Origin: an uncultured Acidimicrobiia bacterium
GTDB taxonomy: Bacteria > Actinomycetota > Acidimicrobiia > Spongiisociales > ZC4RG35
NCBI GenBank assembly: GCA_964195235.1
Contig: CAXMOW010000005.1
Span: 2,642 to 66,641, forward strand
Direction of reading: 5' to 3'
DNA: 64,000 bases
Shown: positions 11,690 to 46,170 of the stretch, one piece after another
Layout: every line of letters begins with the position of its first letter
Numbering within the stretch: the stretch's first letter is position 1
Notes under the pieces: generated by a model
The model's database searches: none
The model's input: the letters and a program-made list of their open reading frames with translations, nothing else
What the model was told of the DNA's origin: nothing
Position numbers and translations under genes: made by a program

Positions 11690-13642
11690 TTAGAGCAAGA
11701 GTGGGTCAGCGTCGATCTGAACCAGCGACGGTCCGTTGTGGTCGAGGGCGAATCTGATCGCGGAGTCGAGCTCCGACGCGTCAGTCACTCGGATGCCGCG
11801 ACCACCACTCAGTTCAGCGAATTCGGCGAAGTCGGGGTTGTGGAGACTGGTCTGCCACACGTCGTACTCAGCACCCCGCTGTTCTTTGCTGATCTTCCCA
11901 AGCTCGTCGTTGACCAGGAGAATCAGTGTGATGTCCATTCCGTATTTCACCGCCGTCGTGAACTCCATTGCGTACTGTCCGAAACCCCCATCACCGGCAA
12001 CGGCAATCACCTGACGTTCGCCTCCGACGGCTGCCCACAGTCCCATGGCTGCAGGAAACGCAAATCCGATTGAACCGAGATAACCGGACATCACCACTGA
12101 CTGCTTGCGGACTTCGAAATAACGTCCGAATGAATATGTGTTGTTGCCGACGTCGACGGCAACAGCAGCATCGGCATCCACTAGGCGAGATAAAGAGTCA
12201 AAGATCGCGGCAGAGTTGACTCCGACGCCGGAGTCATCGGCACGGCGACTGGCCTTCTCTTCACGCCAGATGGCCCACCTCTCCGCCACCTCCTCGGTCC
12301 GGTCCGAAAAAGTGTGTCGAGAGGGCATCCGCTCCTGAATGAGTCTTGCCGTAACCCCGACGTCACCCAGAACAGGAACATCCACGGAATGGAACCGACC
12401 GAGAGCCATGGGATCGTGGTCAATCTGGACGATCGGCTTGTACTCGGCGATTCCAGTGTGATTGGAGAACGACGCTCCAAACACAACAAGGACGTCACTC
12501 TCATTCATGAACCAGGAGGCGACAGGGGTTCCACTACGACCGAGAACGCCACAACCCAGAGGGTGTGAGTCGCTGATCTGACCTTTTGCTTTGAATGTGG
12601 TGACGATCGGGGTGCCCATGGTCCCGGCACACTCGATTATTTGGGCCATGTGGCGCCGCGCCCCCGCGCCCACAATGAAGAGTGGACGCTCAGCCTTTGA
12701 GATCATCTTCAGTGCCGCATCCATCGCCTCGGCCGGCGGAGCAACCTCTCGAGAGCCGGTGCGGCCAATCGGCGAGCCGGATGGACGCAGACTCTCGATC
12801 ACCTGTACTTCGTCAGGGAGCATCAGGTGGGCGACCTCGCGCTCGACTAAAGCGGTCTTGCACGCGAGCGTCATCAGTTCGGCTGCGTCACTACCGGCGT
12901 GCACTGTCTCGCTGAATCTAGCGACGTCCGCAAAGGCCGCCTCGAGATCCAAGTCCTGGAATGCACCCCGACCTCTGATGCTCGAAGGCACCTGACCGGA
13001 CAACGCTAGGACTGGCGCCCGATCGACTTTGGCGTCGTAGAGACCGGTCATGAGGTTGGTGGATCCAGGTCCTGCGATCCCGAAACATGCCGCGAGCTCA
13101 CCAGTCAGCTTTCCGTAGGCGCTGGCCGCGAAAGCCGCGGCACCTTCGTGGCGTATCCCAATGTAAGTGAGATCACCCCGTTCCTCCGCAACACGCATGG
13201 CATCGGCGAAGCCGAGGTTGGAATGCCCAACCATCCCGAACACGTGGGTAACCCCCCAATTCACCATCGTTTCGACCAAGACGTCGCTGATTGTTCTCGG
13301 CCGTTCGGTTTCGATTGGCAGGGCTACATAGACACCGTCGTCTCGCACTTCAGTCGCGAAGCACGTTGGCGCGTCGCTGAATCCTTCAGGAGGTGTGCCG
13401 TCAAGCGGGTTGTAGTCGTATCCGTGCCAAGGACAGCGCAGCCAACCGTGCTCGATCGACCCTTCTCCGAGTGGCCCACCTTGATGTGGGCACTTGTTGT
13501 CGAGGGCACCGTAAGAATCTTGATAGTGAGCCAGAGCAAAACTTCGACGACCGACGTGAACGGTCTTCACCCGGCCTTCGGGTAGGTCGCCGAGATCGGC
13601 AACCTTGTGCCATACGGTGTCGGGTTGGACGCAATCAGTCAT
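11690..13642 (-). CDS. Rieske [2Fe-2S] domain fused to a thiamine-pyrophosphate enzyme (pyruvate oxidase / acetolactate synthase superfamily)
   Basis: 650 aa. The first ~105 aa form a NirD-like Rieske domain (CPHQGGPL...CPWHGYDY). The rest is a three-domain TPP enzyme: GIRHEGAAAFAASAYGKLTG, GPGSTNL, and TPP-binding GDGGFGQY...LVNDELG. Confidence 0.85.
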   Translation of the reverse strand: MTDCVQPDTVWHKVADLGDLPEGRVKTVHVGRRSFALAHYQDSYGALDNKCPHQGGPLGEGSIEHGWLRCPWHGYDYNPLDGTPPEGFSDAPTCFATEVRDDGVYVALPIETERPRTISDVLVETMVNWGVTHVFGMVGHSNLGFADAMRVAEERGDLTYIGIRHEGAAAFAASAYGKLTGELAACFGIAGPGSTNLMTGLYDAKVDRAPVLALSGQVPSSIRGRGAFQDLDLEAAFADVARFSETVHAGSDAAELMTLACKTALVEREVAHLMLPDEVQVIESLRPSGSPIGRTGSREVAPPAEAMDAALKMISKAERPLFIVGAGARRHMAQIIECAGTMGTPIVTTFKAKGQISDSHPLGCGVLGRSGTPVASWFMNESDVLVVFGASFSNHTGIAEYKPIVQIDHDPMALGRFHSVDVPVLGDVGVTARLIQERMPSRHTFSDRTEEVAERWAIWREEKASRRADDSGVGVNSAAIFDSLSRLVDADAAVAVDVGNNTYSFGRYFEVRKQSVVMSGYLGSIGFAFPAAMGLWAAVGGERQVIAVAGDGGFGQYAMEFTTAVKYGMDITLILLVNDELGKISKEQRGAEYDVWQTSLHNPDFAEFAELSGGRGIRVTDASELDSAIRFALDHNGPSLVQIDADPLLL

Positions 13643-19716: not shown

Positions 19717-20949
19717 TCAGCCGGCCAGAAACAAAGCAGGTTCTTCGAGATTTTCCATCACAAGTTCCATGAATCGACGCCCGGTGCCACCGTCGATGAC
19801 GCGGTGATCGTAAGAGATCGAAAGTGGCATCACCGGGGCGATTGCCAAGTCGCCGTCATAGACGATCGGCCTCGCTTGAGCCCGCCCGACGGAGAGAATG
19901 GCTGTCGTCCCATAGGGGACAATCGGCGTGCCATGACCGCCACCGACGGCGCCAATATTCGAAACGGTGAAGGTTTGACCGGTGAGTTCGGACAAACCCA
20001 ACGTCCGCTCCCGGGCACCTTCTCCGAGACGACGAACCTCGTCTGCGAGCTCGATCACATTCCTCGAGTCGGCATCAATTACGACTGCCACCATGAGGCC
20101 CTCTGGTGTGTCGACAGCGATCCCGATGTCGTGCGATCCATGTAACACGAGGTCGTCGCCGTCGAGTGTCGCGTTGAACTCGGGGAAAGCACTCAGCGCC
20201 GGGAGGACGCCCCGGACCACCAACGCTTCCAGAGGGATCTTGATGTCGTGACGGTCGCTCAGCGCAGCGCGGACTTCGAGCAGGCGGGTGGCGTCGACGT
20301 CGTCGAACGTTGTGACATGTGGAATCTCGGCCCAGCTCTTTGACATGTTGGCTGCGATGGTGCGACGAAGACGCGACATCTGGGTGCGAGTCTCGGCCCG
20401 AACCCCCTCCGCCTCGGCCTGCGACCGAGGCACCTCCCCCGCCGGCGCAGGGGAGGAAGGGGAAGAAACAGTTTCGGTCGCGGCTTCTACATCTTCGCGG
20501 GTTATCCGCCCGTCGGGCCCGGTTCCTGTGATGGTCTCGATATCGAGCCCGGCTTCTCGCGCCATTTTGCGAACGATGGGCAGGGCCTTCACCTTTGCGG
20601 ATGTCTCGACGACTATCTCTGAAGGTGTCTCGATGACCTCGGCTTCTTCGCTCAGGGTGCCCACAATGGGGGCAGCGTGGTCCACGAGTAGATCTTCGGC
20701 AGTCGCCTCCCCCTCTTCACCAATAACCACTAGGACCGCACCGACTGCCAGCACTTCGCCCTCTGCGCCACCGTGTTGAAGTACGACACCGGCGTAGGGC
20801 GAAGGGATCTCAACTACAGCCTTGTCTGTTTCGACTTCGACAATCGGCTGATCGGATTCAACATGGTCACCTTCGGCAACTAGCCACGTGACGATCTCGG
20901 CCTCAGTGAGGCCTTCTCCGATATCGGGGAGCCTGAACTCTCGGGCCAC
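19717..20949 (-). CDS. Dihydrolipoamide acyltransferase (E2) of a 2-oxoacid dehydrogenase complex
   Basis: Lipoyl domain (FRLPDIGEGLTEAEI..VETDKAVVEIPSP), a subunit-binding domain (ALPIVRKMAREAGLD) and the catalytic motif DHRVIDG. I set the start to the GTG at 20949, which shares a G with the E1beta TAG. The longer ORF to 21087 overlaps E1beta. Confidence 0.9.
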   Translation of the reverse strand: MAREFRLPDIGEGLTEAEIVTWLVAEGDHVESDQPIVEVETDKAVVEIPSPYAGVVLQHGGAEGEVLAVGAVLVVIGEEGEATAEDLLVDHAAPIVGTLSEEAEVIETPSEIVVETSAKVKALPIVRKMAREAGLDIETITGTGPDGRITREDVEAATETVSSPSSPAPAGEVPRSQAEAEGVRAETRTQMSRLRRTIAANMSKSWAEIPHVTTFDDVDATRLLEVRAALSDRHDIKIPLEALVVRGVLPALSAFPEFNATLDGDDLVLHGSHDIGIAVDTPEGLMVAVVIDADSRNVIELADEVRRLGEGARERTLGLSELTGQTFTVSNIGAVGGGHGTPIVPYGTTAILSVGRAQARPIVYDGDLAIAPVMPLSISYDHRVIDGGTGRRFMELVMENLEEPALFLAG

Positions 20950-21926
20950 TATCCCTCCAATGTCTTGTTGGCTGCTGTGATGATCTGATCGACACTTGGA
21001 AGGTAGTGGGCTTCGGAGCGCTTGAGCGGAAACACGGTGTCCCACCCGGTCACTCGTTGTACCGGGGCGACCAGCGAGTAGAGACACCTCTCCTGAATCG
21101 AGGCAGCTATTTCACCCCCGAGCCCACCGGTGAGCGGCGCTTCGTGAACTACTACCGCCCGTCCCGTCTTTTCGACACTCGTTGCTATTCCGTCTCGGTC
21201 AAGCGGGGACAAGGTGCGCACATCGATGACTTCTACTGAAACTCCGAGGTCTTCGAGTCTTGTCGCGGCCTCACGGGTCTCTTTCATCATCGAGCCCCAG
21301 GCGATCAGGGTCAGATCATCACCTTGACGCTCAACGCGAATCGGCCCGATTTCGGTTGTGTAGTAGATCTCTGGGATGTCTTCTTTGACCGCGCGATAGA
21401 GCCTGATTGGCTCGAGGAATATCACAGGGTCGGGATCTTCGATTGCGGCGAGAAGAAGACCCCGGGCGTCGCGTGGTGTCGAGGGGACCACCACCTTGAG
21501 GGCTGGGATGTGTGTGTAGATCGCCTCGGTCGACTCCGAGTGATGCTCAGCGGCGCCAATCCCACCGCCGTATGGCATTCGAATCACCAACGGTGCGGTG
21601 AAACGGTGGTTCGAGCGGTTCCGGATCCGAGCAACATGATTGATCACCTGGTCGTATGCGGGATACGAGAAACCCATGAATTGAAGCTCGGCTACAGGCC
21701 GCAAGCCTGCGATCGCCATTCCGAAGGCTGCGCCGACGATCCCCGACTCGGCAACCGGAGTATCAAATACTCGGCTCGCGCCATATTTGGCCAAAAGCCC
21801 ATCGGTGATCCTGAACACACCACCAGCACGCCCAATGTCTTCTCCGAGAAGCACTACTCGGTCGTCCGACCTCAACGCCGTATCCATTGCACCGGTGAGG
21901 GCCAAAGCGAGATTGACTTCAGCCAC
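20949..21926 (-). CDS. 2-oxoacid dehydrogenase E1 component, beta subunit
   Basis: 325 aa. Typical transketolase-like Pyr and C-terminal domains (GEDIGRAGGVFRIT.., DTPVAESGIVG..). Confidence 0.93.
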   Translation of the reverse strand: MAEVNLALALTGAMDTALRSDDRVVLLGEDIGRAGGVFRITDGLLAKYGASRVFDTPVAESGIVGAAFGMAIAGLRPVAELQFMGFSYPAYDQVINHVARIRNRSNHRFTAPLVIRMPYGGGIGAAEHHSESTEAIYTHIPALKVVVPSTPRDARGLLLAAIEDPDPVIFLEPIRLYRAVKEDIPEIYYTTEIGPIRVERQGDDLTLIAWGSMMKETREAATRLEDLGVSVEVIDVRTLSPLDRDGIATSVEKTGRAVVVHEAPLTGGLGGEIAASIQERCLYSLVAPVQRVTGWDTVFPLKRSEAHYLPSVDQIITAANKTLEG

Positions 21927-23025
21927 TTGCTCCCCCGGAAGCGCTCATTCGGCTCAACATCTCCTCACGAGTCGGCGCCGGGACCGACTCCGCCCACTCG
22001 ACAGCCGCCTCGATCACATCAGAGGCACTCTGCTCTATCGCGTCTTGCCACTCCTGATCCCAGCCGCCCGCCTTCTCGAGTAGAAGCCTGACTCGTTCCA
22101 ACGGATCACGATCCCTCCACATCTCGGCTTCATCGTCGTCTCGATAGCGTGTTGGATCATCTGATGTGGTGTGGGGCCCGATTCGATATGTGACGGCCTC
22201 GATGAGACTGGGACCTTCTCCGCGGCGCGCCCGCTCGGCAGCTTCTCTCACCGCCACGAGCACACCGACAACATCGTTGCCATCGACCCGAATACCAGGC
22301 ATACCGTATGCATCAGCCTTTCCTGCAATCGTCGCCGAACGAGTCTGTTCGGATGTGGGATAGCTAATCGCGTAACCATTGTTCTGGCAGAGAAACACTG
22401 TGGGTGTTTCATAAACAGCTGCGAAGTTCATTGCCTCGTGAAAGTCACCCTCCGATGTGGCGCCGTCGCCAAACGACGTGAGGGCAATGCGACCAGACTC
22501 CTGGAGTTCTTCAGCCCAGGCCAAGCCAACGGCGTGGATCATGTGCCCGCCAACGGTGATCGAAGGCGGGAGCACATTCACTCCTTCGGGGACTTCCCCA
22601 CCCCTCTCGTCGCCGGTTCGACCCAGAATGAGGAGACGCCACGGATAACCGGCCCGCCAGTTGAGCGCTGCGTCGCGATACGTTCCAGCCACCCAGTCAC
22701 CGTCGCTCAATGCAGCAGCGGCACCGATTTGTGCAGCCTCCTGACCCTGAAATGGCGCGTAGGTGGCCAACCGGCCCTGTCGCTGCATCGCAATCGACTT
22801 GGTGTCGTAAGTCCTCGCCTCGACCATGTCTGCGTACAGACCCTTCATCTCGTCAAGGGTGATCGGGAGACGGTCGCGCACCGACCCGTCTGGGTTGACC
22901 AGGCCGTACACACCAGGATTCAAATCATGGTCTGATTGGCGTGGAACGTTGTCGATTGTCTTTTGAGGGGCGCTTGGGATCAAAGCCTCGAGGCCACGTC
23001 CCAGCCCCGGTTTGCGTGTATTCAC
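21919..23025 (-). CDS. 2-oxoacid dehydrogenase E1 component, alpha subunit, with a ParB-like N-terminal peptide
   Basis: TPP-binding motif GDGATSEGDFHEAMNFAAVY..LCQNNGYAIS. The preferred start is the GTG at 23025 (AGGAG 4 nt upstream); the alternative is the GTG at 23046. The N-terminus reads (M)NTRKPGLGRGLEALIPSAPQ. Confidence 0.88.
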   Translation of the reverse strand: MNTRKPGLGRGLEALIPSAPQKTIDNVPRQSDHDLNPGVYGLVNPDGSVRDRLPITLDEMKGLYADMVEARTYDTKSIAMQRQGRLATYAPFQGQEAAQIGAAAALSDGDWVAGTYRDAALNWRAGYPWRLLILGRTGDERGGEVPEGVNVLPPSITVGGHMIHAVGLAWAEELQESGRIALTSFGDGATSEGDFHEAMNFAAVYETPTVFLCQNNGYAISYPTSEQTRSATIAGKADAYGMPGIRVDGNDVVGVLVAVREAAERARRGEGPSLIEAVTYRIGPHTTSDDPTRYRDDDEAEMWRDRDPLERVRLLLEKAGGWDQEWQDAIEQSASDVIEAAVEWAESVPAPTREEMLSRMSASGGASG

Positions 23026-23085
23026 GCCACTCCTGTATTGGCACACCGAGAGGAAGCGGCGAGCTTATACCTGATTGAAAGGCTT

Positions 23086-24702
23086 TCAGCCGGCCTCGAC
23101 AGGCTCGTCTTCTGCCTCAATGGCGGCGATTTCTTCGAATGACATATCAGGGATACGTCTGACCATGAACAAGGCAATCACGACAACCACACCGGCCACA
23201 AAGAGACCGAGGCGCAATGCCTCAAGCTGGCCCGCTTCATACGATTCCACAATCGCGTCGATTTCTTCAGAAGAGAGGTCAGTCTCTGCCAGCCCGTCCT
23301 CGAGATCGGAGGAGTTGACGAACTCGATCGAGCCGCTGAGTTCAACGCCAATCGCCTGACTCACCTCTGGTGGGATGCGAGGATCCTGTTCCACAAGGGT
23401 GACAAACGCCGAAGCGAGGGCACTGATAACGACCGCCCCAATGAGTGCTGTCCCCATTGACGAGCCAAGTTGCTGCGCAGTGTATTGAAGCCCACCTGCT
23501 TCAGACCGGTCCTTCGGGCCCACGGCGGATTGGACGACGTTGCCTAACTGTGACGCGAGAAGCCCCATGCCAACTCCCAGCAGTGCCATTGAGATCGCGA
23601 ATGCGAATCCCTCGAGAACCGGCTCGATCGTCCCAATCAGCACCACTACGGCGACCAACAAGACCCAAAGGCCGACCTTGACGATCCAACGCGGTGTTTT
23701 GGTAGCACTCATTCGGGCACCGGCGAATGACATGATGAACATCGTCACCGAAACAGGGAGCATCCTGAGACCGGTCTCGAGGGCGTCGAGGCCTTGAACA
23801 ACCTGCAAATAGAGCGGTATCGCGAAGAAGACACCCATCAGGATCAGGTTTTGAGCAAAGAACATCTGCAGACCACCCTTCAGCGGGCGAATCTCGAGTA
23901 GCCCAAGTCTGAACAAAGGGTCCTCACCCCGCGTTTCGCGGCGCTGTGTCCATCTCACGAACCCGGCGAGCACCAAGACCCCGGCACCAACTACAAACGG
24001 TGTCAGGGCAAGCCCCAGCGGTGTCACAGGCGAGCTGTTATTGGCAACCCATCCCCATTCGCTTGCCTTGAGAATTCCATAGACAAGTAGACCCAGTCCG
24101 AGTGCCGAAAGCCCAGAACCCACCCAATCGACTTCAGGCTTTCTCCCCACTCGAGCGATGTCGGTCACCCAACCAAGCAGCACGATGATCAGCAAGACGA
24201 GAACCACCTCGCCGACGAAAACGTACCGCCATGTGAAGTTGGTGGTCACCCAACCCCCGAGGATGGGGCCGACAGCAATTCCGGCGCCGGCCACACCTCC
24301 AATAACACCATAGGCAACAGCGCGATCGGCACCCTGGTAGCTCCCCGCAATCAAGGCGACTAAAGCCGGCAGGACAAGTGCCGCTCCGATTCCTTCGAGA
24401 ATCGACCAGCCCAGAAGAAGTTGCGGCACGGTCTGCGACACTGCCGTAAGGGCCGATCCCAGTCCGTAGATGATCAACCCAATCAAGAAAGCTCGTTTCC
24501 TGCCCCAACGGTCGCCAAGCTTTCCACCGGTGATCATCAAAGCCGCCATGGTCAGGGCGTAGAAAGTGATGACACCCTGGATGACAGTGACCGTTGTATC
24601 GAAATCCTCGACAAGCTGGCTGATGGAGACGTTCATCACGGCCTGGTCCAGAACCATCAAGAACTGGGCAAGCGAGAGAACGATCAGGGCGCGCCATTTC
24701 AT
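23086..24702 (-). CDS. MFS transporter, DHA2 (14-TMS EmrB/QacA-like) family
   Basis: 538 aa. About 14 predicted TM helices, with motif A-like GKLGDRWGRKR. Confidence 0.88.
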   Translation of the reverse strand: MKWRALIVLSLAQFLMVLDQAVMNVSISQLVEDFDTTVTVIQGVITFYALTMAALMITGGKLGDRWGRKRAFLIGLIIYGLGSALTAVSQTVPQLLLGWSILEGIGAALVLPALVALIAGSYQGADRAVAYGVIGGVAGAGIAVGPILGGWVTTNFTWRYVFVGEVVLVLLIIVLLGWVTDIARVGRKPEVDWVGSGLSALGLGLLVYGILKASEWGWVANNSSPVTPLGLALTPFVVGAGVLVLAGFVRWTQRRETRGEDPLFRLGLLEIRPLKGGLQMFFAQNLILMGVFFAIPLYLQVVQGLDALETGLRMLPVSVTMFIMSFAGARMSATKTPRWIVKVGLWVLLVAVVVLIGTIEPVLEGFAFAISMALLGVGMGLLASQLGNVVQSAVGPKDRSEAGGLQYTAQQLGSSMGTALIGAVVISALASAFVTLVEQDPRIPPEVSQAIGVELSGSIEFVNSSDLEDGLAETDLSSEEIDAIVESYEAGQLEALRLGLFVAGVVVVIALFMVRRIPDMSFEEIAAIEAEDEPVEAG

Positions 24703-24741: not shown

Positions 24742-27048
24742 CTAGACGCCGGCCGACTCCGCGTGAAGAATGTCCTCGAGCTCGTCCACCGTCATCAAAA
24801 CGTCACGAGCCTTGCTACCCACCGAAGGCCCGACGACGCCCTTGAGCTCCAGGGCGTCCATCACACGGCCGGCACGGGCGAAGCCGATTCGGAGCTTCCG
24901 TTGCAACATCGACGTCGAACCCAGCTGCGAACGCACCACCAGATCCATAGCCTGCCTGATCAAAACCGCATCGTCATCATCTGCCTCCACAGCTTGGGCA
25001 GCTGAGGCGGCCGCGGCAGCCTCGAGAACCTTCTTATCCTCATAAACGGCTTCACGTTGCCCTTTCACCCAATCGACAACGGCTTCGATCTCGGACTCTC
25101 GTACCCACGCTCCCTGGATTCGTTGCGGTCGCGGTTCCTTGGCGGTGACGACGAGCATGTCCCCCATGCCTATCAGCTTCTCAGCGCCTGAGCCGTCGAG
25201 GATCACACGGCTGTCCGTTTGCGACGCAACACTGAAAGCGAGACGGCTGGGCACGTTGGCTTTGATCACACCGGTGATGACATCAACCGAAGGGCGCTGG
25301 GTCGCAATGACCAGGTGGATGCCGACCGCTCGCGCCATTTGTGCGATACGAACGATGGAATCCTCAACTTCACGACCAGCAACCATCATCAAGTCGTTGA
25401 GCTCGTCGATGAGAACAACGATGAAGGGGAAGCGATCGAATCCCTCAGGATCGAGGTTCCCGGAGTCGAGTTTGTCACGGTAACCCTCGATGTCACGAAC
25501 CTTGGCGTCGGCCAGCAAGTCATAACGTCGGTCCATCTCGGCCACGGCCCACTTCAGCGCATCATTCGCCTTTTTCGGGTTGGTGATCACGCGCGTGAGC
25601 AAATGTGGAACGCCGTTGTACTGCCCCAGCTCCACACGCTTCGGGTCGACCATGATCAGACGGACATCATCAGGATGGGTTCGCATCAGCAGCGAAGTCA
25701 CGATCGAGTTGATGCAAGATGATTTTCCGGCGCCGGTGGCTCCCGCAATCAGAACGTGGGGAAGCTCGGCCAGATTGAGCAGCTTGGGGGAGCCCGAGAT
25801 GTCCATTCCCAAGCCGACAGTCAGAGGACTCGTTGGTTTCGCAAATTCAGGGCTGGCCAGAATGTCGCCCAAGGAGACAAGACGACGTTTGGTGTTGGGT
25901 ACCTCGACTCCGATTGCAGATTTCCCGGGAATCGGCACAAGGAGACGGACATCGGGCGTGGCAAGGGCGTATGCAATGTCATGTGAGAGGTTGGAAACCC
26001 GGTTCACCTTGACCCCGGGAGCGAGCTCGATCTCGTAACGGGTCACGGTGGGCCCGGGGACGATCTTGGTCAGGGTCGCGTCGACCCCGTGTTGGAGAAG
26101 AGTGTCTTCCAGTTGGCGTGCTGTTTCTTCTAACGAGCGACGATTGATCTCGCCACCGGTTCCACCCTCGAGGAGCTCCAGCGGCGGAAGCTCATAGTCG
26201 GTCTGGGTTAGATCGATTGTGGCGACGATCGGAGAGTCCTCGACGACCTCTACCGGTTCCGGCTCATCTTCGACCTTCGGCTTCTTCTCCTTCGCCGGTT
26301 TCTGACGTTGGTGTTTGCCTTTCTTTGGCCCTGCGGCAGGCGTGACCATCGGCGTCACCGGACCAGGCTTCAGACTCGCAAACGCTTCGGTGGCGAATCT
26401 CTTGACACTGCGACCCATGTCGGCAATCCCATGAAAAAGCTGGCGCACGGTCGTTTGGGTCATGATGAGAACGCCCATTCCAATGGTCGCGGCAAGCACA
26501 ACAAAAGAACCCCACGAGCCGAGGATGCGACGCATCGGGAAGGCGATCAAAGCACCGACTGCGCCGCCGCGCTCCGTGACCAGATCGATACTTGGTCGCA
26601 GTGACACAGCCCCGGTCAGGAGATGAAAGAGAGCGAGTGTGCCTATGAATGTGGTGATGCCGCCGATAACGAGACGTCGCGCTCCGTCGCGTGGTTTGCC
26701 CACGATCAGGGCGATTCCGATTCCCAGCAGAGCCACAGGCAGCGCAAATCTCCAGACGCCGAAGAGGAACGTGCTCCCGGTCTGGAGTCCGTCGCCAACG
26801 GGGCCGGCGCGATCGACGAATGCCAACGTGACCAGGATCGAAAGGACGACGAGCACCAGACCCCAGACGTCATCCGTCTGTCGGCCAAATGTCGTACGGA
26901 TCGAGTCCCGAAACGCCGCCAGCTTTTGGCGAATCGTGCTCGACTTTGACTTCTTGTTCTTTTTGGCTGAGGACACCCGTCTCCGCCCGGATCCCTTCCG
27001 GGTGGGTGTCCGCGTTGTCATGTGAATGGAGACAATACCCGCCCACAC
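24742..27048 (-). CDS. ftsK: DNA translocase FtsK
   Basis: 768 aa. N-terminal TM helices, a Pro/Lys/Glu-rich linker, a motor domain (Walker A GATGAGKSSCINS) and a C-terminal gamma winged-helix (SMLQRKLRIGFARAGRVMD). An alternative ATG start lies at 27021. Confidence 0.93.
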   Translation of the reverse strand: MWAGIVSIHMTTRTPTRKGSGRRRVSSAKKNKKSKSSTIRQKLAAFRDSIRTTFGRQTDDVWGLVLVVLSILVTLAFVDRAGPVGDGLQTGSTFLFGVWRFALPVALLGIGIALIVGKPRDGARRLVIGGITTFIGTLALFHLLTGAVSLRPSIDLVTERGGAVGALIAFPMRRILGSWGSFVVLAATIGMGVLIMTQTTVRQLFHGIADMGRSVKRFATEAFASLKPGPVTPMVTPAAGPKKGKHQRQKPAKEKKPKVEDEPEPVEVVEDSPIVATIDLTQTDYELPPLELLEGGTGGEINRRSLEETARQLEDTLLQHGVDATLTKIVPGPTVTRYEIELAPGVKVNRVSNLSHDIAYALATPDVRLLVPIPGKSAIGVEVPNTKRRLVSLGDILASPEFAKPTSPLTVGLGMDISGSPKLLNLAELPHVLIAGATGAGKSSCINSIVTSLLMRTHPDDVRLIMVDPKRVELGQYNGVPHLLTRVITNPKKANDALKWAVAEMDRRYDLLADAKVRDIEGYRDKLDSGNLDPEGFDRFPFIVVLIDELNDLMMVAGREVEDSIVRIAQMARAVGIHLVIATQRPSVDVITGVIKANVPSRLAFSVASQTDSRVILDGSGAEKLIGMGDMLVVTAKEPRPQRIQGAWVRESEIEAVVDWVKGQREAVYEDKKVLEAAAAASAAQAVEADDDDAVLIRQAMDLVVRSQLGSTSMLQRKLRIGFARAGRVMDALELKGVVGPSVGSKARDVLMTVDELEDILHAESAGV

Positions 27049-30385: not shown

Positions 30386-31864
30386 ATGGAGTTGAAACTT
30401 CCTGCGCCTTGCGTTGTCGTGCTCATCGGCCCAAGCCGGACCGGCAAGACGACTTGGGCCCACAACCACTTTGCCTCAAACGAAGTGGTGTCTTCGGACG
30501 CGCTCCGTGCAATGGTGGGAATCGACGAAGACGACCAGATCGCAAGCACCTCCGCCTTCGAGCTCCTCGATCAAATTTTTTCCGAGCGTCTCACACGAGG
30601 ACTGACGACGGTGATCGACACCACCGGGCTCCAAACCGAAAACCGGGCGAAATGGATCGAAACAGCGCACGGGGCAGAACTTCCTATTTACGCGATCGTC
30701 TTCACCGCAACACTCGATGAGGTCGAGCGACCCAACCAATCGCGAGCGAGACCGATCCCCAAGACTGTCCTCCGCAAGCAGTTCACGACCATGCAAAAGG
30801 TGATGAAAGGAATCGCCGATGAGGGATTTGACGGAGTGCACGAAGAGCAAACGGTACGTGCGGTTGTCTCAACTCTCATAGCTTCCACTCCCGACGATGC
30901 ACAGCCGACGGGCCACACCTTCGGGCTGCTGTTGAGCAGATTCGAGTGGGCGACACGTGATTTCGGCGATCAACTAGCCAAGATCGCCCGGCGTGCAGAG
31001 GACGCCGGGTTCACCGACCTATGGGTCATGGATCACTTCCGCCAGATCCAACAGGTGGGCAGACCGTGGGAAGACATTCCAGAGGCCTACACCGCCCTCG
31101 CCTACCTGGCAGGTGTGACCACCAATATTCGACTTGGGGCTCTGGTTAGCGGGATCACACATCGCAATCCGGTGCTGCTTGGAAAAATGCTGGCTTCACT
31201 CGACGTGCTCTCAGGGGGGCGGGTCATCGCTGGACTGGGAGCGGCTTGGGACGAAAAAGAACACGAGGCGTACGGGATCGACTTCCCGAGCCTCAGTGGT
31301 CGTTATGACCTCCTCGAGGACACGCTGAACATGCTCCCGCTGCTTTGGGGCAAAGGCACGCCTGGCTTTGAGGGCAAGACCTTTTCCGCGGCCGAGTTGA
31401 TCTCATATCCGCGCCCCATCCAGGACCCGATTCCGATCATGGTGGGTGGCTCGGGAGAGCTGAAGACGTTGCGTTTGGTCGCTGAGTACGCCGATGCTTG
31501 CAACCTGTTCGGTGACCCGAACACGATTCGCCACAAGGTCGAAGTGCTTCGTCGACATTGCGCCGACCTCGACAGAGATCCATCCGAGATACGGGTTACC
31601 CATTTGATCACGGCGATGGCGGCATCCGATCCCGGTGCCCTGCGGGAACGGATCGGAAGCCTCCGGGGCCGCAACCAGACGGTCGAGCAGTATGCCAAGC
31701 AGAACAACGCAGGGACTGTGGACGACCTGATCGGTCTGTTCTCGACCTACTCGGAAGCCGGTGCCGACCACTCGATTGTGGCGCTTCCCGACGTGGCGAT
31801 GGAAAGGTCCATCGAGACATTCGCAGAGGTGATCACATTCTTCAAACAGCCGTTGAGGTCCTAG
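30386..31864 (+). CDS. Fusion protein: N-terminal polynucleotide-kinase-like P-loop kinase domain plus C-terminal LLM-class (F420-type luciferase-like) oxidoreductase
   Basis: 492 aa. Residues 1-165 carry Walker A GPSRTGKTTW, SSD..R, TVIDTTGL and NQSRARPIP, as in Pnkp/AAA_33 kinase domains. Residues ~175-492 form an LLM TIM barrel (LWVMDHF.., GALVSGITHRNPVLLGKMLASLDVLSGGRVIAGLGAAW). Confidence 0.8.
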   Translation: MELKLPAPCVVVLIGPSRTGKTTWAHNHFASNEVVSSDALRAMVGIDEDDQIASTSAFELLDQIFSERLTRGLTTVIDTTGLQTENRAKWIETAHGAELPIYAIVFTATLDEVERPNQSRARPIPKTVLRKQFTTMQKVMKGIADEGFDGVHEEQTVRAVVSTLIASTPDDAQPTGHTFGLLLSRFEWATRDFGDQLAKIARRAEDAGFTDLWVMDHFRQIQQVGRPWEDIPEAYTALAYLAGVTTNIRLGALVSGITHRNPVLLGKMLASLDVLSGGRVIAGLGAAWDEKEHEAYGIDFPSLSGRYDLLEDTLNMLPLLWGKGTPGFEGKTFSAAELISYPRPIQDPIPIMVGGSGELKTLRLVAEYADACNLFGDPNTIRHKVEVLRRHCADLDRDPSEIRVTHLITAMAASDPGALRERIGSLRGRNQTVEQYAKQNNAGTVDDLIGLFSTYSEAGADHSIVALPDVAMERSIETFAEVITFFKQPLRS

Positions 31865-43094: not shown

Positions 43095-45182
43095 ATGCGT
43101 GAACGTGAGCAGACCTTTCTTGCCGACTTGATCGGCCCCGAGGACCGGGCGATCGAGGCCGTGGTGAGTCGCTATCAGAGAGTGGCCCCGGCAGTCACCC
43201 GGCTGGCAAGGAGTCTGTCCGACAACCCGAACCTCCGCGTGCGTCTCGGTTCGGAAGCGGCGGCTTCGGAGGATGAAATCGTTTGTGACCCGCGAATTTT
43301 TCAAGCCGCGTATCACAGGAACGCACCCGTCACCCCCGACGAAGTGGCGCTCGCATCGGCCCTCCATGAGGTCATGCATCTCGTCTCAACCAATCTCGAC
43401 GAGGTCCGCGAGCTTCCCGATGGCTGGCCGATTGAGGGACCGATTACCGAAGGCGTCGAGCTCGACCTGTTGACAGCACTCGAGCGGACCGAAAAGCCGG
43501 TCGCAGAGGTTCTCTTCTTCAGCCTCGAAGATGCCCGTCAGGAGATCCAAGGCTTGGCCAGCTACCCGGGCGCCCGCTCGGTGCTCGACGACCTTTATCT
43601 TTCTTCTCTCGGACAGGCGATCGCAAAGTCTGGAGCACTGAGTCAGTTCGTCCTTGGTTGCTTCCTTCTCACTGGTGGCTACGTAGAGCGAGAGGTCCTG
43701 GAAACCCGGTTCGAGGCGCGGGCAGCCGTTGCGATCGACGATGCGACCGAACACTGCAAGATGGCCTCCGAGACGGATGACCCCTGGTACGTGGCACAAC
43801 TTGCTTTGGAATTGGAGGCCATTGCGCGAACGCATGGGTTGATCACGGAAGTCCCCGAAAGTGCAAGCAACGCACAACGGAAGTTGGCGTCGGAAAGTGA
43901 CGCTGAGAAAGCAGCCTCTGGCGTTGACGCCGTGCGGATGGTTTCCCCGATTGTCACCGACGCCGACTCGTATCAGGACACAAAGCGCGCAGCCGAGTCG
44001 CGCTCGGGGTTGTCCGACCGGAAAGGTGCGTCAGAGCTTGCCGGCGATGAGTCGACTGATCAGCTACTCAGGGTTAGCCAGGCTCCGGACGTCTACCTTC
44101 CGACGGGCCAGGGGGGGAAACTTCTGGTCACACCGATTCCTTCGTCGTTCTCCAAATTCGGGGCCCAGGGATTGGAGGCCTTGAGCATCGCCGCCAAGAA
44201 GTGGGAGGTGGCACAACGTCGCGTTTCTGGCGAGCTCTTCCCACTGTTTGCAGCCAACCAACGTCGTGGTCTTCGGTCTGGCTTCGACCAGGGAGACGTT
44301 TCGCCCCACGCCGCCCTGTTCATTGGTGCCGGTCTCTACCAGCGTCTCTATGAGCGCAGAGCGGCACGGACCCGTCGGCGGTACGCAGTTTCACTTCTTG
44401 TCGACGCGTCGGCTTCGATGCTCAGCCCCGGCCGCCGTGAAGGACGGGGGACGACGTGGGCCATGTCTGCAGCATTGCTTGGAGCCTGGACAATGGCCCG
44501 GCTGTGTGATGAGCTTCAGATCGATTTCGAAGTCGCCCTGTTCAACCGGGGCTTCGCCGCTCGCCCTCACGACACCGAAAAAAGCTTTCGAGCTGCCCGG
44601 TCTGCTGCCACAGCAGGTCTGAGACAGACCCAAGGAACCGCCGCTGATCGTCTGACGACAACCGTCAATCATTATCTGGTGAAGTCGTTCGACCGGCGAT
44701 GGCGTGATGCTCAGCACACACTGTCCGGTCTCTTCTTCACGGTTCAAGACCCGAAACGAGCCGCTGCATTAACCCGTCGTGATCCAGAAAACGCACCGCC
44801 TGTATCACTGTTCGAGAAGGCGGCCAACGTCGACGAGTACAACGTAATCCACGCCGCAGAACGGATGGCCCGACAAGGCGCCGACGTGAGATTGCTGATG
44901 GTCCTCGCCGACGGGATGACCCGCGGGTCGGTGGATGCGCTCACCAAGTCGGTGTCATCGATCGAGGCTACCGGCACCACCGTCATCGGAATCGGCATCG
45001 GAGATCACACTGTCGACGAGGCATATCAGCGCCACGAGGTTGTCGAACAGCCAGAGCATCTGGCGAAGGCGATGATCGACGGCACACGAAGCGCCCTCCG
45101 CCGAAGTCTTGCCATTTCGGGCATGGACGGATGGTGGGTCAAGGTTTCTGAAAATCAATCCAAGGAGAAAGCAATTGCCTGA
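43095..45182 (+). CDS. CobT-like von Willebrand factor A protein with an N-terminal HExxH motif
   Basis: 695 aa. HEVMH lies at 43365-43379. The C-terminal vWA domain has a MIDAS DASAS motif (44403-44417) and ..MVLADGMT. Its size and its partner match CobT/NorD-type proteins. Confidence 0.8.
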   Translation: MREREQTFLADLIGPEDRAIEAVVSRYQRVAPAVTRLARSLSDNPNLRVRLGSEAAASEDEIVCDPRIFQAAYHRNAPVTPDEVALASALHEVMHLVSTNLDEVRELPDGWPIEGPITEGVELDLLTALERTEKPVAEVLFFSLEDARQEIQGLASYPGARSVLDDLYLSSLGQAIAKSGALSQFVLGCFLLTGGYVEREVLETRFEARAAVAIDDATEHCKMASETDDPWYVAQLALELEAIARTHGLITEVPESASNAQRKLASESDAEKAASGVDAVRMVSPIVTDADSYQDTKRAAESRSGLSDRKGASELAGDESTDQLLRVSQAPDVYLPTGQGGKLLVTPIPSSFSKFGAQGLEALSIAAKKWEVAQRRVSGELFPLFAANQRRGLRSGFDQGDVSPHAALFIGAGLYQRLYERRAARTRRRYAVSLLVDASASMLSPGRREGRGTTWAMSAALLGAWTMARLCDELQIDFEVALFNRGFAARPHDTEKSFRAARSAATAGLRQTQGTAADRLTTTVNHYLVKSFDRRWRDAQHTLSGLFFTVQDPKRAAALTRRDPENAPPVSLFEKAANVDEYNVIHAAERMARQGADVRLLMVLADGMTRGSVDALTKSVSSIEATGTTVIGIGIGDHTVDEAYQRHEVVEQPEHLAKAMIDGTRSALRRSLAISGMDGWWVKVSENQSKEKAIA

Positions 45183-46170
45183 AATAGTCACTTTCGAGGA
45201 CCCCAGTGGCGAAGGGGCGCCGATCAAACTCGATAGGTTTGTGGTCGGGAAGGACGCAGCGGATCTCGAACTCCGACGACGAAAGGTCCCCGAACCAGAC
45301 CCCCACTACGTCGACCTGGGCATGCTCTACCGGTTCGCCCAAGTAGAGCAGGCACGACGGTCCGGCGCCGACGGTCTTGTCCCGCTGCACATTGCGGTCC
45401 GGGGTCATATGGGAACCGGGAAGGACCACGACATCGAGCAATTCGCCGCTGCAATGGGTCTCCCCTACTTCCGGATCCCGCTGACCGGTGAAGTACGAGA
45501 CGTCACGCTGATCGGGTCGACCCATCTTCACGGTGACGGCAAGGGTGGCACTGAGAGTCGATGGGAGGACGGTGACATCACCCGAGCGCTTCGCGGTCCT
45601 GCCCTGCTCAATCTCTCCGAGTTGAACGCTGCCGGCGCTGAGACGTTGTTTGCCCTCCATGGTTTGCTCGATCGCTACGGAGCCCTCGACCTGCCCAACG
45701 GCGAAACAGTGAGCCTCCGAGACGATGTGAGGGTCTTCGGCACCATGAACCCCACCGACATTCGGGACTATGCCGGCACCCAGACCCTCAACAAGGCCTT
45801 CGCCGACCGATGGGTGATTTGGGAGAAGAAATTTCCCGCTGAGGAACAGGTCAAGGAAATGCTCACCACCCGCTATCCAAGACTGAACGACGAATACGTC
45901 GAGGCTGTGTCCCGACTCACGGTTGAGATCAACGCATCATTCGACACGACCGACACCGACGTTCGTGTGGAGACGCCGCTCTCACTTCGTGCTGTCCTCG
46001 ACAGGGTGCCGACTGGGCTCTTGGTCTACGCAGATCGTGAAGACCCACTACGTCATGCCTGGGATGAGTTTGTCCTGCCACAGGTGGATGCGTACGACCG
46101 TGACCACTATGAGACGGTGTGGAATGCGGTGGTAAGACGCGGTCCTTCGGTCAAGCCGTTTGGAAAGTGA
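45175..46170 (+). CDS. CobS-like AAA+ (AAA_5/MoxR-related) ATPase with deviant Walker A/B residues
   Basis: Start moved to the TTG at 45175 (AAGGAG RBS at 45163-45168, overlapping the upstream stop). VRGHMGTGKDHDIEQFAAAMGLPYFRIPL.., ALLNLSELNAAGAETLF and GTQTLNKAFADRW parallel CobS (GTGKSTHIEQ, FDEYDAG, GTQ.NQA..DRW). Confidence 0.8.
   Translation: MPEIVTFEDPSGEGAPIKLDRFVVGKDAADLELRRRKVPEPDPHYVDLGMLYRFAQVEQARRSGADGLVPLHIAVRGHMGTGKDHDIEQFAAAMGLPYFRIPLTGEVRDVTLIGSTHLHGDGKGGTESRWEDGDITRALRGPALLNLSELNAAGAETLFALHGLLDRYGALDLPNGETVSLRDDVRVFGTMNPTDIRDYAGTQTLNKAFADRWVIWEKKFPAEEQVKEMLTTRYPRLNDEYVEAVSRLTVEINASFDTTDTDVRVETPLSLRAVLDRVPTGLLVYADREDPLRHAWDEFVLPQVDAYDRDHYETVWNAVVRRGPSVKPFGK

Follow-up and report, generated by a model that had tools for sequence, protein, structure and literature searches.

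The window (the whole stretch of 64,000 nucleotides analysed here, from contig CAXMOW010000005.1 of an uncultured Acidimicrobiia bacterium) contains an operon encoding the E1alpha and E1beta subunits and the E2 acyltransferase of a 2-oxoacid dehydrogenase complex (Table 1), and the E1alpha protein carries at its N-terminus a short peptide, hereafter called the tag, that resembles the ParA-interaction peptide of the chromosome partition protein ParB. The E1alpha reading frame runs on the minus strand from the GTG at 23025 to 21919 and begins with VNTRKPGLGRGLEALIPSAPQKTIDNVPRQSDHDLNPGVYGLVNPDGSVRDRLP, of which residues 1-17 (23025-22975) read VNTRKPGLGRGLEALIP. The sequence of the tag, its coordinates and the AGGAG/GTG start at 23025 are exactly those given in a preliminary description of this DNA. 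That description also placed the ordinary E1alpha core downstream of the tag, as is borne out by the similarity to other E1alpha proteins, which begins around residue 40. The alignment with the closest solved structure, the pyruvate dehydrogenase (PDH) E1alpha of Geobacillus (1W85), starts at query residue 41, and the sole Pfam domain, PF00676 (E1_dh), starts at residue 67. The NCBIfam model TIGR03181 (PDH E1alpha) gives 410.5 bits against a curated cut-off of 411.35, and the substrate would be pyruvate or a branched-chain 2-oxoacid. With its E1_dh domain and with E1beta and E2 encoded downstream, the window protein is, judging from its sequence, the E1alpha subunit of a 2-oxoacid dehydrogenase of the heterotetrameric, thiamine pyrophosphate (TPP)-dependent type. 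It is not a ParB: neither this protein (E1_dh only) nor a naturally fused E1alpha-E1beta form described below (E1_dh plus transketolase domains) contains a ParB-CTPase fold or a helix-turn-helix domain.

The segment GLGRGLEALIP of the tag conforms to the ParA-binding core [LIF]G[KR]G[LIF] with aliphatic flanks and a central R10, and its residues L8, L12, L15 and I16 are invariant or nearly so among homologues. The basic residues R4 and K5 precede the motif, which lies at the extreme N-terminus, from residue 7, in an unstructured region. When a 20-column profile of the tag was compared with 177,635 PDB sequences, a single match was obtained, the N-terminus of Thermus Spo0J (SRKPSGLGRGLEALLPKT; E = 6e-5), and a PDB search with the tag as a single sequence also retrieved it, in agreement with the likeness to Thermus Spo0J noted in the preliminary description. 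A scan of the 41 N-terminal residues against NCBIfam, at E up to 10, produced no hit and is uninformative, as hmmscan filters do not suit so short a peptide. We also built a scoring matrix exclusively from the N-termini of Acidimicrobiia ParB proteins (residues 4-17) and slid it over 2.07 million six-frame windows from the window and the E1 loci. All E1 tags scored between 29 and 41 bits (32.5 for the tag of the window), the best unrelated window reaching 17.7 bits, so that the 11-residue match is indeed more than a chance resemblance. The ParB set consisted of 120 homologues of the ParB of locus L087, all source-named ones being Acidimicrobiia proteins. They share the consensus MTTRRSGLGRGLESLIP, and in 106 of the 120 GLGRGL begins at residue 7; in the consensus MTTRRSGLGRGLESLIPIDP of the same 120 homologues, R5, G7, L8, G9, R10, G11, L12, L15, I16 and P17 are invariant, and the variable positions (2, 3, 6, 13, 14 and from 18 onward) follow the same pattern as in the E1 tags.

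GLGRGL occurs once in the window, and otherwise only in one antisense open reading frame (ORF) in 1.2 Mb of related flanking sequences. A metagenome census with the pattern R[KR][PSA]GLGRGL[ED] yielded at least 600 matches, and the best 80 were classified into 61 ParB, 18 split E1alpha, one fused E1alpha-beta and one unknown ORF. The conserved arginine is residue 4 in 44 of the 61 ParB proteins and in all E1 tags. In every ParB locus for which upstream DNA is available, a parA gene with the Walker A signature (KGGxGK[ST]) stops no more than about 25 nt from the tag, whereas the E1 loci lack such a gene. Taken together, the same invariant residues, the same distance from the start codon, the disordered tether and the purifying selection at the protein level (see below) argue that the tag is, as first proposed, a ParA-interaction motif of the ParB type. 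On a GC-rich metagenome contig (L114:1230-1605), STRRSGLGRGLEALIPSTTSELTANGIELVAIEDRPAGTLVRVV belongs to an ORF encoding something other than ParB or E1, with only a sub-threshold match to DUF7393; this ORF runs off the contig, has an uncertain start and may represent a third kind of tagged protein.

The extension is conserved among E1alpha orthologues, a point left for verification in the preliminary description. About 112 of the 120 closest homologues (73-100% identity), of which all source-named ones come from metagenome-assembled genomes of uncultured Acidimicrobiia/Actinobacteria, carry the tag, their common N-terminus being M/V/L-S/T-S/T-R-K/R-x-GLGRGL-E/D-A/S-L-I-P, followed by a linker (20-25 residues, about 22 in the window) and then by the core MFxLINPDGSVRDRLP. 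The eight that seem tagless were called from an internal Met. For one of them, P0079 (L001; L002 is identical), the DNA contains an in-frame tag upstream of the called start, with AGGAGG and a GTG. The eight missing tags are thus explained by gene-caller starts at an internal ATG, as read directly in the DNA for P0079 and deduced for the other seven. Among 109 sequences, R4, G7, L8, G9, G11, L15 and P17 are invariant, R10, L12 and I16 are conserved in more than 96%, and positions 18-20, just beyond the tag, have an entropy above 2 bits. The corresponding codons vary freely: over 14 codons of 18 non-redundant split-E1 tags, the mean pairwise differences at codon positions 1, 2 and 3 are 1.56, 0.37 and 7.11, with 6.25 synonymous against 1.84 non-synonymous codon changes per pair. 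Since the residues remain invariant despite many synonymous codons, selection acts on the peptide and not on a nucleic-acid element. An element acting at the DNA or RNA level was also considered and rejected, given this free synonymous variation and the lack of conservation of the upstream DNA except for the Shine-Dalgarno (SD) sequence. We likewise discarded a twin-arginine signal peptide: the arginine pair is replaced by RK in most tags, a hydrophobic h-region is missing after it, and the enzyme is cytoplasmic. Two codons stand apart in the same 18 tags, Gly7 (23005-23007 in the window) being GGG in 17 of them, while Gly9 and Gly11 use all four codons, and R4 being CGC in 16; this bias may reflect a constraint on the translation-initiation region.

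The preliminary description had envisaged that translation might start at the TTG 22923 or the GTG 22911, codons of residues L35 and V39 of the tagged protein, leaving the motif untranslated. This is contradicted by comparison of 24 non-redundant tagged loci. In all 24, the upstream GTG/TTG is preceded at 5-10 nt by an SD-like match, usually AGGAG and never shorter than 4 nt. At the position of the ancestral start, where untagged sister proteins begin, the codon is ATG in 19 of the 24 and start-capable in 21, is replaced by ATA in L085 and by ACG in L133, and is preceded by a weak SD in just eight. The conserved SD before the upstream start, together with the loss of the internal codon in some species, indicates that the long, tagged form is the conserved product. 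A minor short isoform without the tag is possible in some species, but it is not conserved. In L001, AGGAG precedes the internal Met at the ancestral start, so some species might produce both tagged and untagged E1alpha isoforms. The start of a longer ORF at 23046 lacks an SD and shows no conservation.

Table 1. Coordinates of the tagged E1alpha gene, its elements and the downstream genes of the operon in the window.
Feature	Position	Strand	Evidence or remarks
Shine-Dalgarno sequence AGGAG	23030..23034	-	Read in the sequence; 4-nt spacer TGGC before the start codon
GTG start codon of tagged E1alpha	23023..23025	-	GTG (9/10) or TTG (1/10) in orthologues, likewise placed three codons ahead of R4
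Predicted ParB-type ParA-binding tag, residues 1-17, (V/M)NTRKPGLGRGLEALIP	22975..23025	-	Conservation in homologues and ParB profile match
Disordered hypervariable linker, residues 18-38	22912..22974	-	Entropy >2 bits per position just after P17; AlphaFold2 pLDDT <50
GTG (V39) at the ancestral start-codon position, internal Met in most relatives	22909..22911	-	Untagged sisters start here (MF/ML..LI.PDG)
E1alpha catalytic body (TPP-dependent, PDH type), residues 40-368 and stop	21919..22908	-	Pfam E1_dh, 6e-84
E1beta gene	20949..21926	-	Pfam Transket_pyr and Transketolase_C; overlaps the E1alpha stop
E2 acyltransferase gene (lipoyl, E3-binding and catalytic domains)	19717..20949	-	Pfam

Among the split E1alpha proteins, those with the tag make up a monophyletic clade from uncultured Acidimicrobiia, comprising nine GTDB species representatives in addition to the window and more than 100 protein clusters. 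A scan of GTDB species representatives returned 80 E1alpha loci, of which L003-L009 and L029 carry the tag. Relatives with a similar core identity (72-81%) do not have it, nor does anything at 68% identity or below, and of the 150 best-matching representatives of 50%-identity clusters only one fragment, which belongs to the same clade, has the motif. The tagged cores form a single clade on a neighbour-joining (NJ) tree (the NJ trees of this study are simple trees without support values), with L010, which has no tag and has kept a linker-like sequence, and the tagless L016 as the immediate neighbours of this clade. In most untagged relatives (L012, L014-L018, L020, L021, L023, L024 and L026), the stop codon of an ftsK gene lies just upstream of the E1alpha start and the protein has the N-terminus MF/ML..LI.PDG. 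The E1alpha-E1beta-E2 operon is common to tagged and untagged lineages, with E1beta (78-85%) and E2 equally conserved, and since the untagged lineages keep the same operon, the tag is an accessory module that is not needed for assembly of the complex.

Strings such as RSRRWKR.. upstream of untagged relatives were considered as candidate frame-shifted tags and rejected, because they correspond to the C-terminus of FtsK read out of frame. Only the case of L014 is real: at L014:9890-10000 a tag (VSSRRSGLGRGLGALIS) lies out of frame with the E1alpha core, which corresponds either to an assembly indel or to a tag that is being lost. The nearest other cluster, P0121 (54% identity), has the N-terminus MRGRHVAVSERFVGEPLLALIEHTEP / MRGRHVAVSERFVGEPLLALIEHTEPEPS, in which ..LLALIEHTEP can be compared with ..LEALIPTEP. 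This N-terminus is possibly a decayed tag, which would hint at a tag older than the clade that has kept it. The records of L003, L011, L012 and L076 are labelled 'Acidobacteria/Acidobacteriota bacterium' despite a clearly Acidimicrobiia-type operon, probably through a naming or binning error.

A second tagged family consists of natural E1alpha-E1beta fusions. One representative, encoded by L141 (L141:3998-6148), is a protein of 716 residues with the N-terminus MVTTRRSGLGRGLEALIPSENELTSKTSALRVIDPDG, and other fused loci (L163:10001-12148 and L165:6001-8145) encode proteins of about 715 residues. Among the 120 closest homologues of the L141 protein, all from Acidimicrobiia, 55 were called with the tag; some 20 further ones have their called start within it (LEALIPS.., LGRGLEALIP..), presumably a choice of the gene callers. 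The others are either tagless (MGRFETLRVID..) or seem to carry decayed remnants of the tag (PELETSIPSEN, METPIPGEN, and VTAREAGPGRGLEALIP in L166). The fused genes share a syntenic context: an aminotransferase gene in the opposite direction, the E1alpha-beta gene, a LOG-family gene and a NUDIX/His-phosphatase gene, without an adjacent E2. On the NJ tree of fused E1, the tag is widespread and two untagged clades are nested, which suggests an old gain of the tag followed by later losses.

One contig of 1,144,023 bp (ERZ25039492 contig_4678) carries the cluster dnaA-rnpA-yidD-yidC-jag-rsmG-parA-parB together with a tagged fused E1, and thus allows a comparison of the two motifs from the same genome. 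The N-termini are MTTRRSGLGRGLDALIPTS for ParB and (L/M)ARRGGLGRGLEALIPTE for the fused E1. The corresponding stretches of parB and of the fused-E1 tag are identical at 33 of 45 nucleotides, and at only seven of 15 third codon positions (eight differ). Such a third-position identity is no better than chance, so the likeness has been kept at the protein level and does not result from a recent copy or a gene conversion. This result bears on another proposal of the preliminary description, the capture by the operon of the 5' end of a parB gene, and on its expectation for such a case of a motif absent from orthologues and nearly identical to parB at the nucleotide level. In the fused-family contig there is no excess of nucleotide identity to parB, and the motif is found in hundreds of orthologues. 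A recent neutral capture is not supported, given the age of the tag, its presence in many species and two gene families and the seven shared third positions, and an ancient capture is possible as the origin of the tag.

We modelled the window protein with AlphaFold2 using 45 homologues. Residues 1-37 are predicted as coil with a predicted local distance difference test score (pLDDT) of 28-49, and the core exceeds 90 from about residue 40. In the model of the alpha-beta fusion, residues 1-25 score below 50 and a helix of four residues is found at tag residues 11-14. In neither the alpha chain nor the natural alpha-beta fusion did AlphaFold2 dock the tag confidently on the enzyme body. These predictions fit a short linear motif on a flexible tether, which would fold upon binding to a partner in trans.

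If this partner is a ParA-type ATPase, it is not encoded next to E1: no dedicated ParA/MinD ATPase gene was detected within 10 kb of any tagged E1. The window contains no match to parS at up to two mismatches. One tagged fused E1 shares its contig with a canonical chromosomal parA located away from it. With no dedicated ParA-like ATPase nearby, only the chromosomal ParA itself would be left as the partner.

The known roles of ParA/MinD ATPases include the positioning of chromosomes, plasmids, carboxysomes, chemoreceptor arrays and division sites, in each case via a partner with an N-terminal peptide. The N-terminal peptides of the partners of these ATPases act as cargo 'luggage tags' (PMC10241942, PMC11407121). 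The ParB-type peptide stimulates the ATPase of ParA in synergy with DNA, and two juxtaposed peptides activate ParA far better than one, the ParA dimer having two face-to-face sites (PMC12462528). The interpretation towards which we lean is that the E1 tag is a translated and selectively maintained ParB mimic, which would dock E1 onto nucleoid-bound ParA-ATP and thereby tether the dehydrogenase complex to the nucleoid or distribute it over the nucleoid. As a short linear motif, the tag would dock E1 on DNA-bound ParA-ATP dimers and, once docked, would stimulate the ParA ATPase as ParB does. A dimeric E1, either alpha2beta2 or fused, would present two tags, matching the two peptide sites of the ParA dimer, and the E1 molecules bound to an E2 core would turn the complex into a multivalent particle. 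The chromosomal ParA gradient could then spread 2-oxoacid dehydrogenase complexes over the nucleoid without any dedicated ATPase or adaptor. The notion of the E1/E2 complex as a ParA cargo, already put forward in the preliminary description, is consistent with the sequence data and is the one that we prefer. The bolder proposal that the E1 components of a large group of soil Acidimicrobiia acquired the 'luggage tag' of the chromosomal ParB, and that their megadalton complexes ride on the chromosomal ParA gradient or feed back onto it, appears to us plausible, if somewhat short of probable.

Several observations weigh against the docking of E1 on ParA. E1 is normally abundant, and thousands of ParB-like tags might disturb the ParA gradient required for chromosome segregation. 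The tag is dispensable, as sister lineages with the same operon lack it and some fused-E1 lineages have decayed remnants only. Neither the window nor 1.2 Mb of E1 flanks contains an ORF with a ParA-type Walker A motif (KGGxGK[ST]); the parA and parB genes of the window genome lie outside the window, so that the comparison with parB of the same genome covers the fused family only. Finally, the multivalency of the putative cargo is deduced only from the alpha2beta2 state of homologues (e.g. 1W85) and from E2 cores.

The same sequence evidence could fit a regulatory cross-talk, in which the tag would bind ParA so that the amount or the state of E1 tunes ParA ATPase activity and nucleoid occupancy, E1 being a modulator or a decoy instead of a cargo; central carbon metabolism would then be coupled to chromosome segregation, replication initiation or division. 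E1 likely outnumbers ParB, which suits a titration mechanism, and the orphan fused E1 is tagged without an adjacent E2. PDH components have been reported to co-purify with mycobacterial FtsK (PMC13277299), and the PDH E1alpha of Bacillus subtilis is located on the nucleoid and influences Z-ring placement (PMC4030479). We nevertheless regard this regulatory role as rather unlikely, since there is no sign that the accessibility of the tag depends on the substrate or on the assembly state, and an essential regulatory circuit relying on the tag would fit poorly with its repeated loss. In addition, the B. subtilis PdhA is not known to bear a ParB-like motif. Another partner altogether, such as E2, E3, a chaperone or a protease, could also be envisaged for the tag, whose likeness to ParB would then be convergent or inherited without ParA binding. 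The N-terminal tails of some E1 enzymes, such as E. coli E1p, do contact E2; moreover, no parA is linked to the tagged genes, and the tag is confined to E1 components in two families. However, the match with ParB spans every conserved position of the motif, the preceding basic residues and the distance from the initiator codon, and convergence on all these features for the sake of another partner seems unlikely. The untagged sisters keep the same operon, which indicates that the tag is not needed for assembly, and AlphaFold2 does not dock the tag on the alpha or alpha-beta body, so we consider a partner other than ParA to be improbable.

It could finally be argued that the tag is a relic, the captured 5' end of a parB without function, or that it is untranslated, the real start being a downstream TTG, GTG or ATG. 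In favour of this view, 21 of the 24 tagged loci retain, where the ancestral start lay, an in-frame start-capable codon that some gene callers pick, and close relatives are tagless. Nonetheless, the SD and GTG/TTG found before the tag in every locus, the ATA or ACG internal codons of some species, the residues kept invariant through near-saturated synonymous change, the maintenance of the tag across many species and two gene families and the lack of excess nucleotide identity to parB on contig_4678 together make a relic or untranslated tag very improbable.

The docking of E1 on ParA can be compared with several known systems. The N-terminal peptide of ParB (residues 1-20 in Thermus Spo0J) displays the same arrangement as the E1 tag (R-K/R-x-GLGRGL-E/D-A/S-L-I-P, with R at position 4 and GLGRGL from position 7), an unstructured N-terminus followed by a variable linker, and two copies per dimeric protein. 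In contrast to ParB, the E1 tag is borne by a TPP-dependent dehydrogenase and not by a protein with ParB-CTPase and helix-turn-helix domains, E1 binds neither parS nor other DNA and does not bring its two peptides together under the control of CTP, and its gene is not beside parA. The systems McdB-McdA (carboxysomes), PomX-PomZ and ParP/CheW-ParC share with the E1 tag a short, positively charged and disordered N-terminal peptide that is thought to engage a ParA-type ATPase on the nucleoid (PMC10241942, PMC11407121). They use a dedicated nearby ATPase and an adaptor with a system-specific peptide, whereas E1 itself bears the canonical ParB motif. PadC of Myxococcus and KorB of RK2 likewise employ a ParA-binding motif for purposes other than the classical parS partition complex (bioRxiv 10.1101/2025.10.10.680097), but they keep the ParB-CTPase fold, which the E1 proteins lack according to Pfam. 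The closest precedent for the enzyme itself is the PDH E1alpha of B. subtilis, the same subunit, tied to the nucleoid and the cell cycle as a division regulator (Monahan et al., 2014; PMC4030479); it belongs to another phylum, and there are no reports that it carries a ParB-like motif or depends on ParA. In the papers that we consulted, the canonical ParB motif is described only on proteins with the ParB fold, and we found no paper that ties a ParB motif to a 2-oxoacid dehydrogenase.

Here, the canonical ParB motif is carried directly by a core metabolic enzyme, being selected in two paralogous E1 families and repeatedly lost in others, which suggests that a central metabolic complex of soil Acidimicrobiia is coupled to the chromosome-segregation machinery. 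If the tag binds ParA, the E1 proteins would be a new class of cargo, or a regulator, using the chromosomal ParA itself; the tag would give concrete molecular access to the connection, suspected for a long time, of pyruvate metabolism with the bacterial cell cycle, and would be a natural case of the 'luggage tag' principle sought by synthetic biologists. E1 would also be the first metabolic enzyme to hijack ParABS by motif mimicry, with neither a dedicated ATPase nor an adaptor, and would connect central carbon metabolism to chromosome segregation directly at the molecular level. The polymorphism of tag presence and absence in close relatives constitutes a ready-made comparative experiment.

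The window as a whole is an ordinary chromosomal region of about 58% G+C, in which recA and genes encoding RNase Y, CinA and an Lhr helicase are present. Within the operon, the true start of E2 is the GTG at 20949, which overlaps the TAG stop of E1beta and is preceded by GGAGG 4 nt upstream. Upstream of E1alpha, Pfam analysis identified a major facilitator superfamily (MFS) transporter, FtsK and RNase J. Whether a lineage is tagged or not (L001, L002 and L011-L026), ftsK (24742-27048) is the conserved neighbour on the upstream side of the E1alpha operon, and in the window the MFS transporter gene (23086-24702) is inserted between the two. Further away on the minus strand (11690-13642), a Rieske [2Fe-2S] domain is fused to the N-terminus of a complete acetolactate-synthase-like TPP enzyme (TPP_enzyme_N/M/C), and this fusion is kept near the PDH operon in a related contig (L001:18515-20467). 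On the plus strand, a gene at 30386-31864 encodes a luciferase-like monooxygenase fused to an AAA_33 kinase-like domain, and the region 43095-46170 contains an ORF of 695 residues without a Pfam match, followed by an overlapping ORF for an AAA_5 (MoxR/dynein-related) ATPase.

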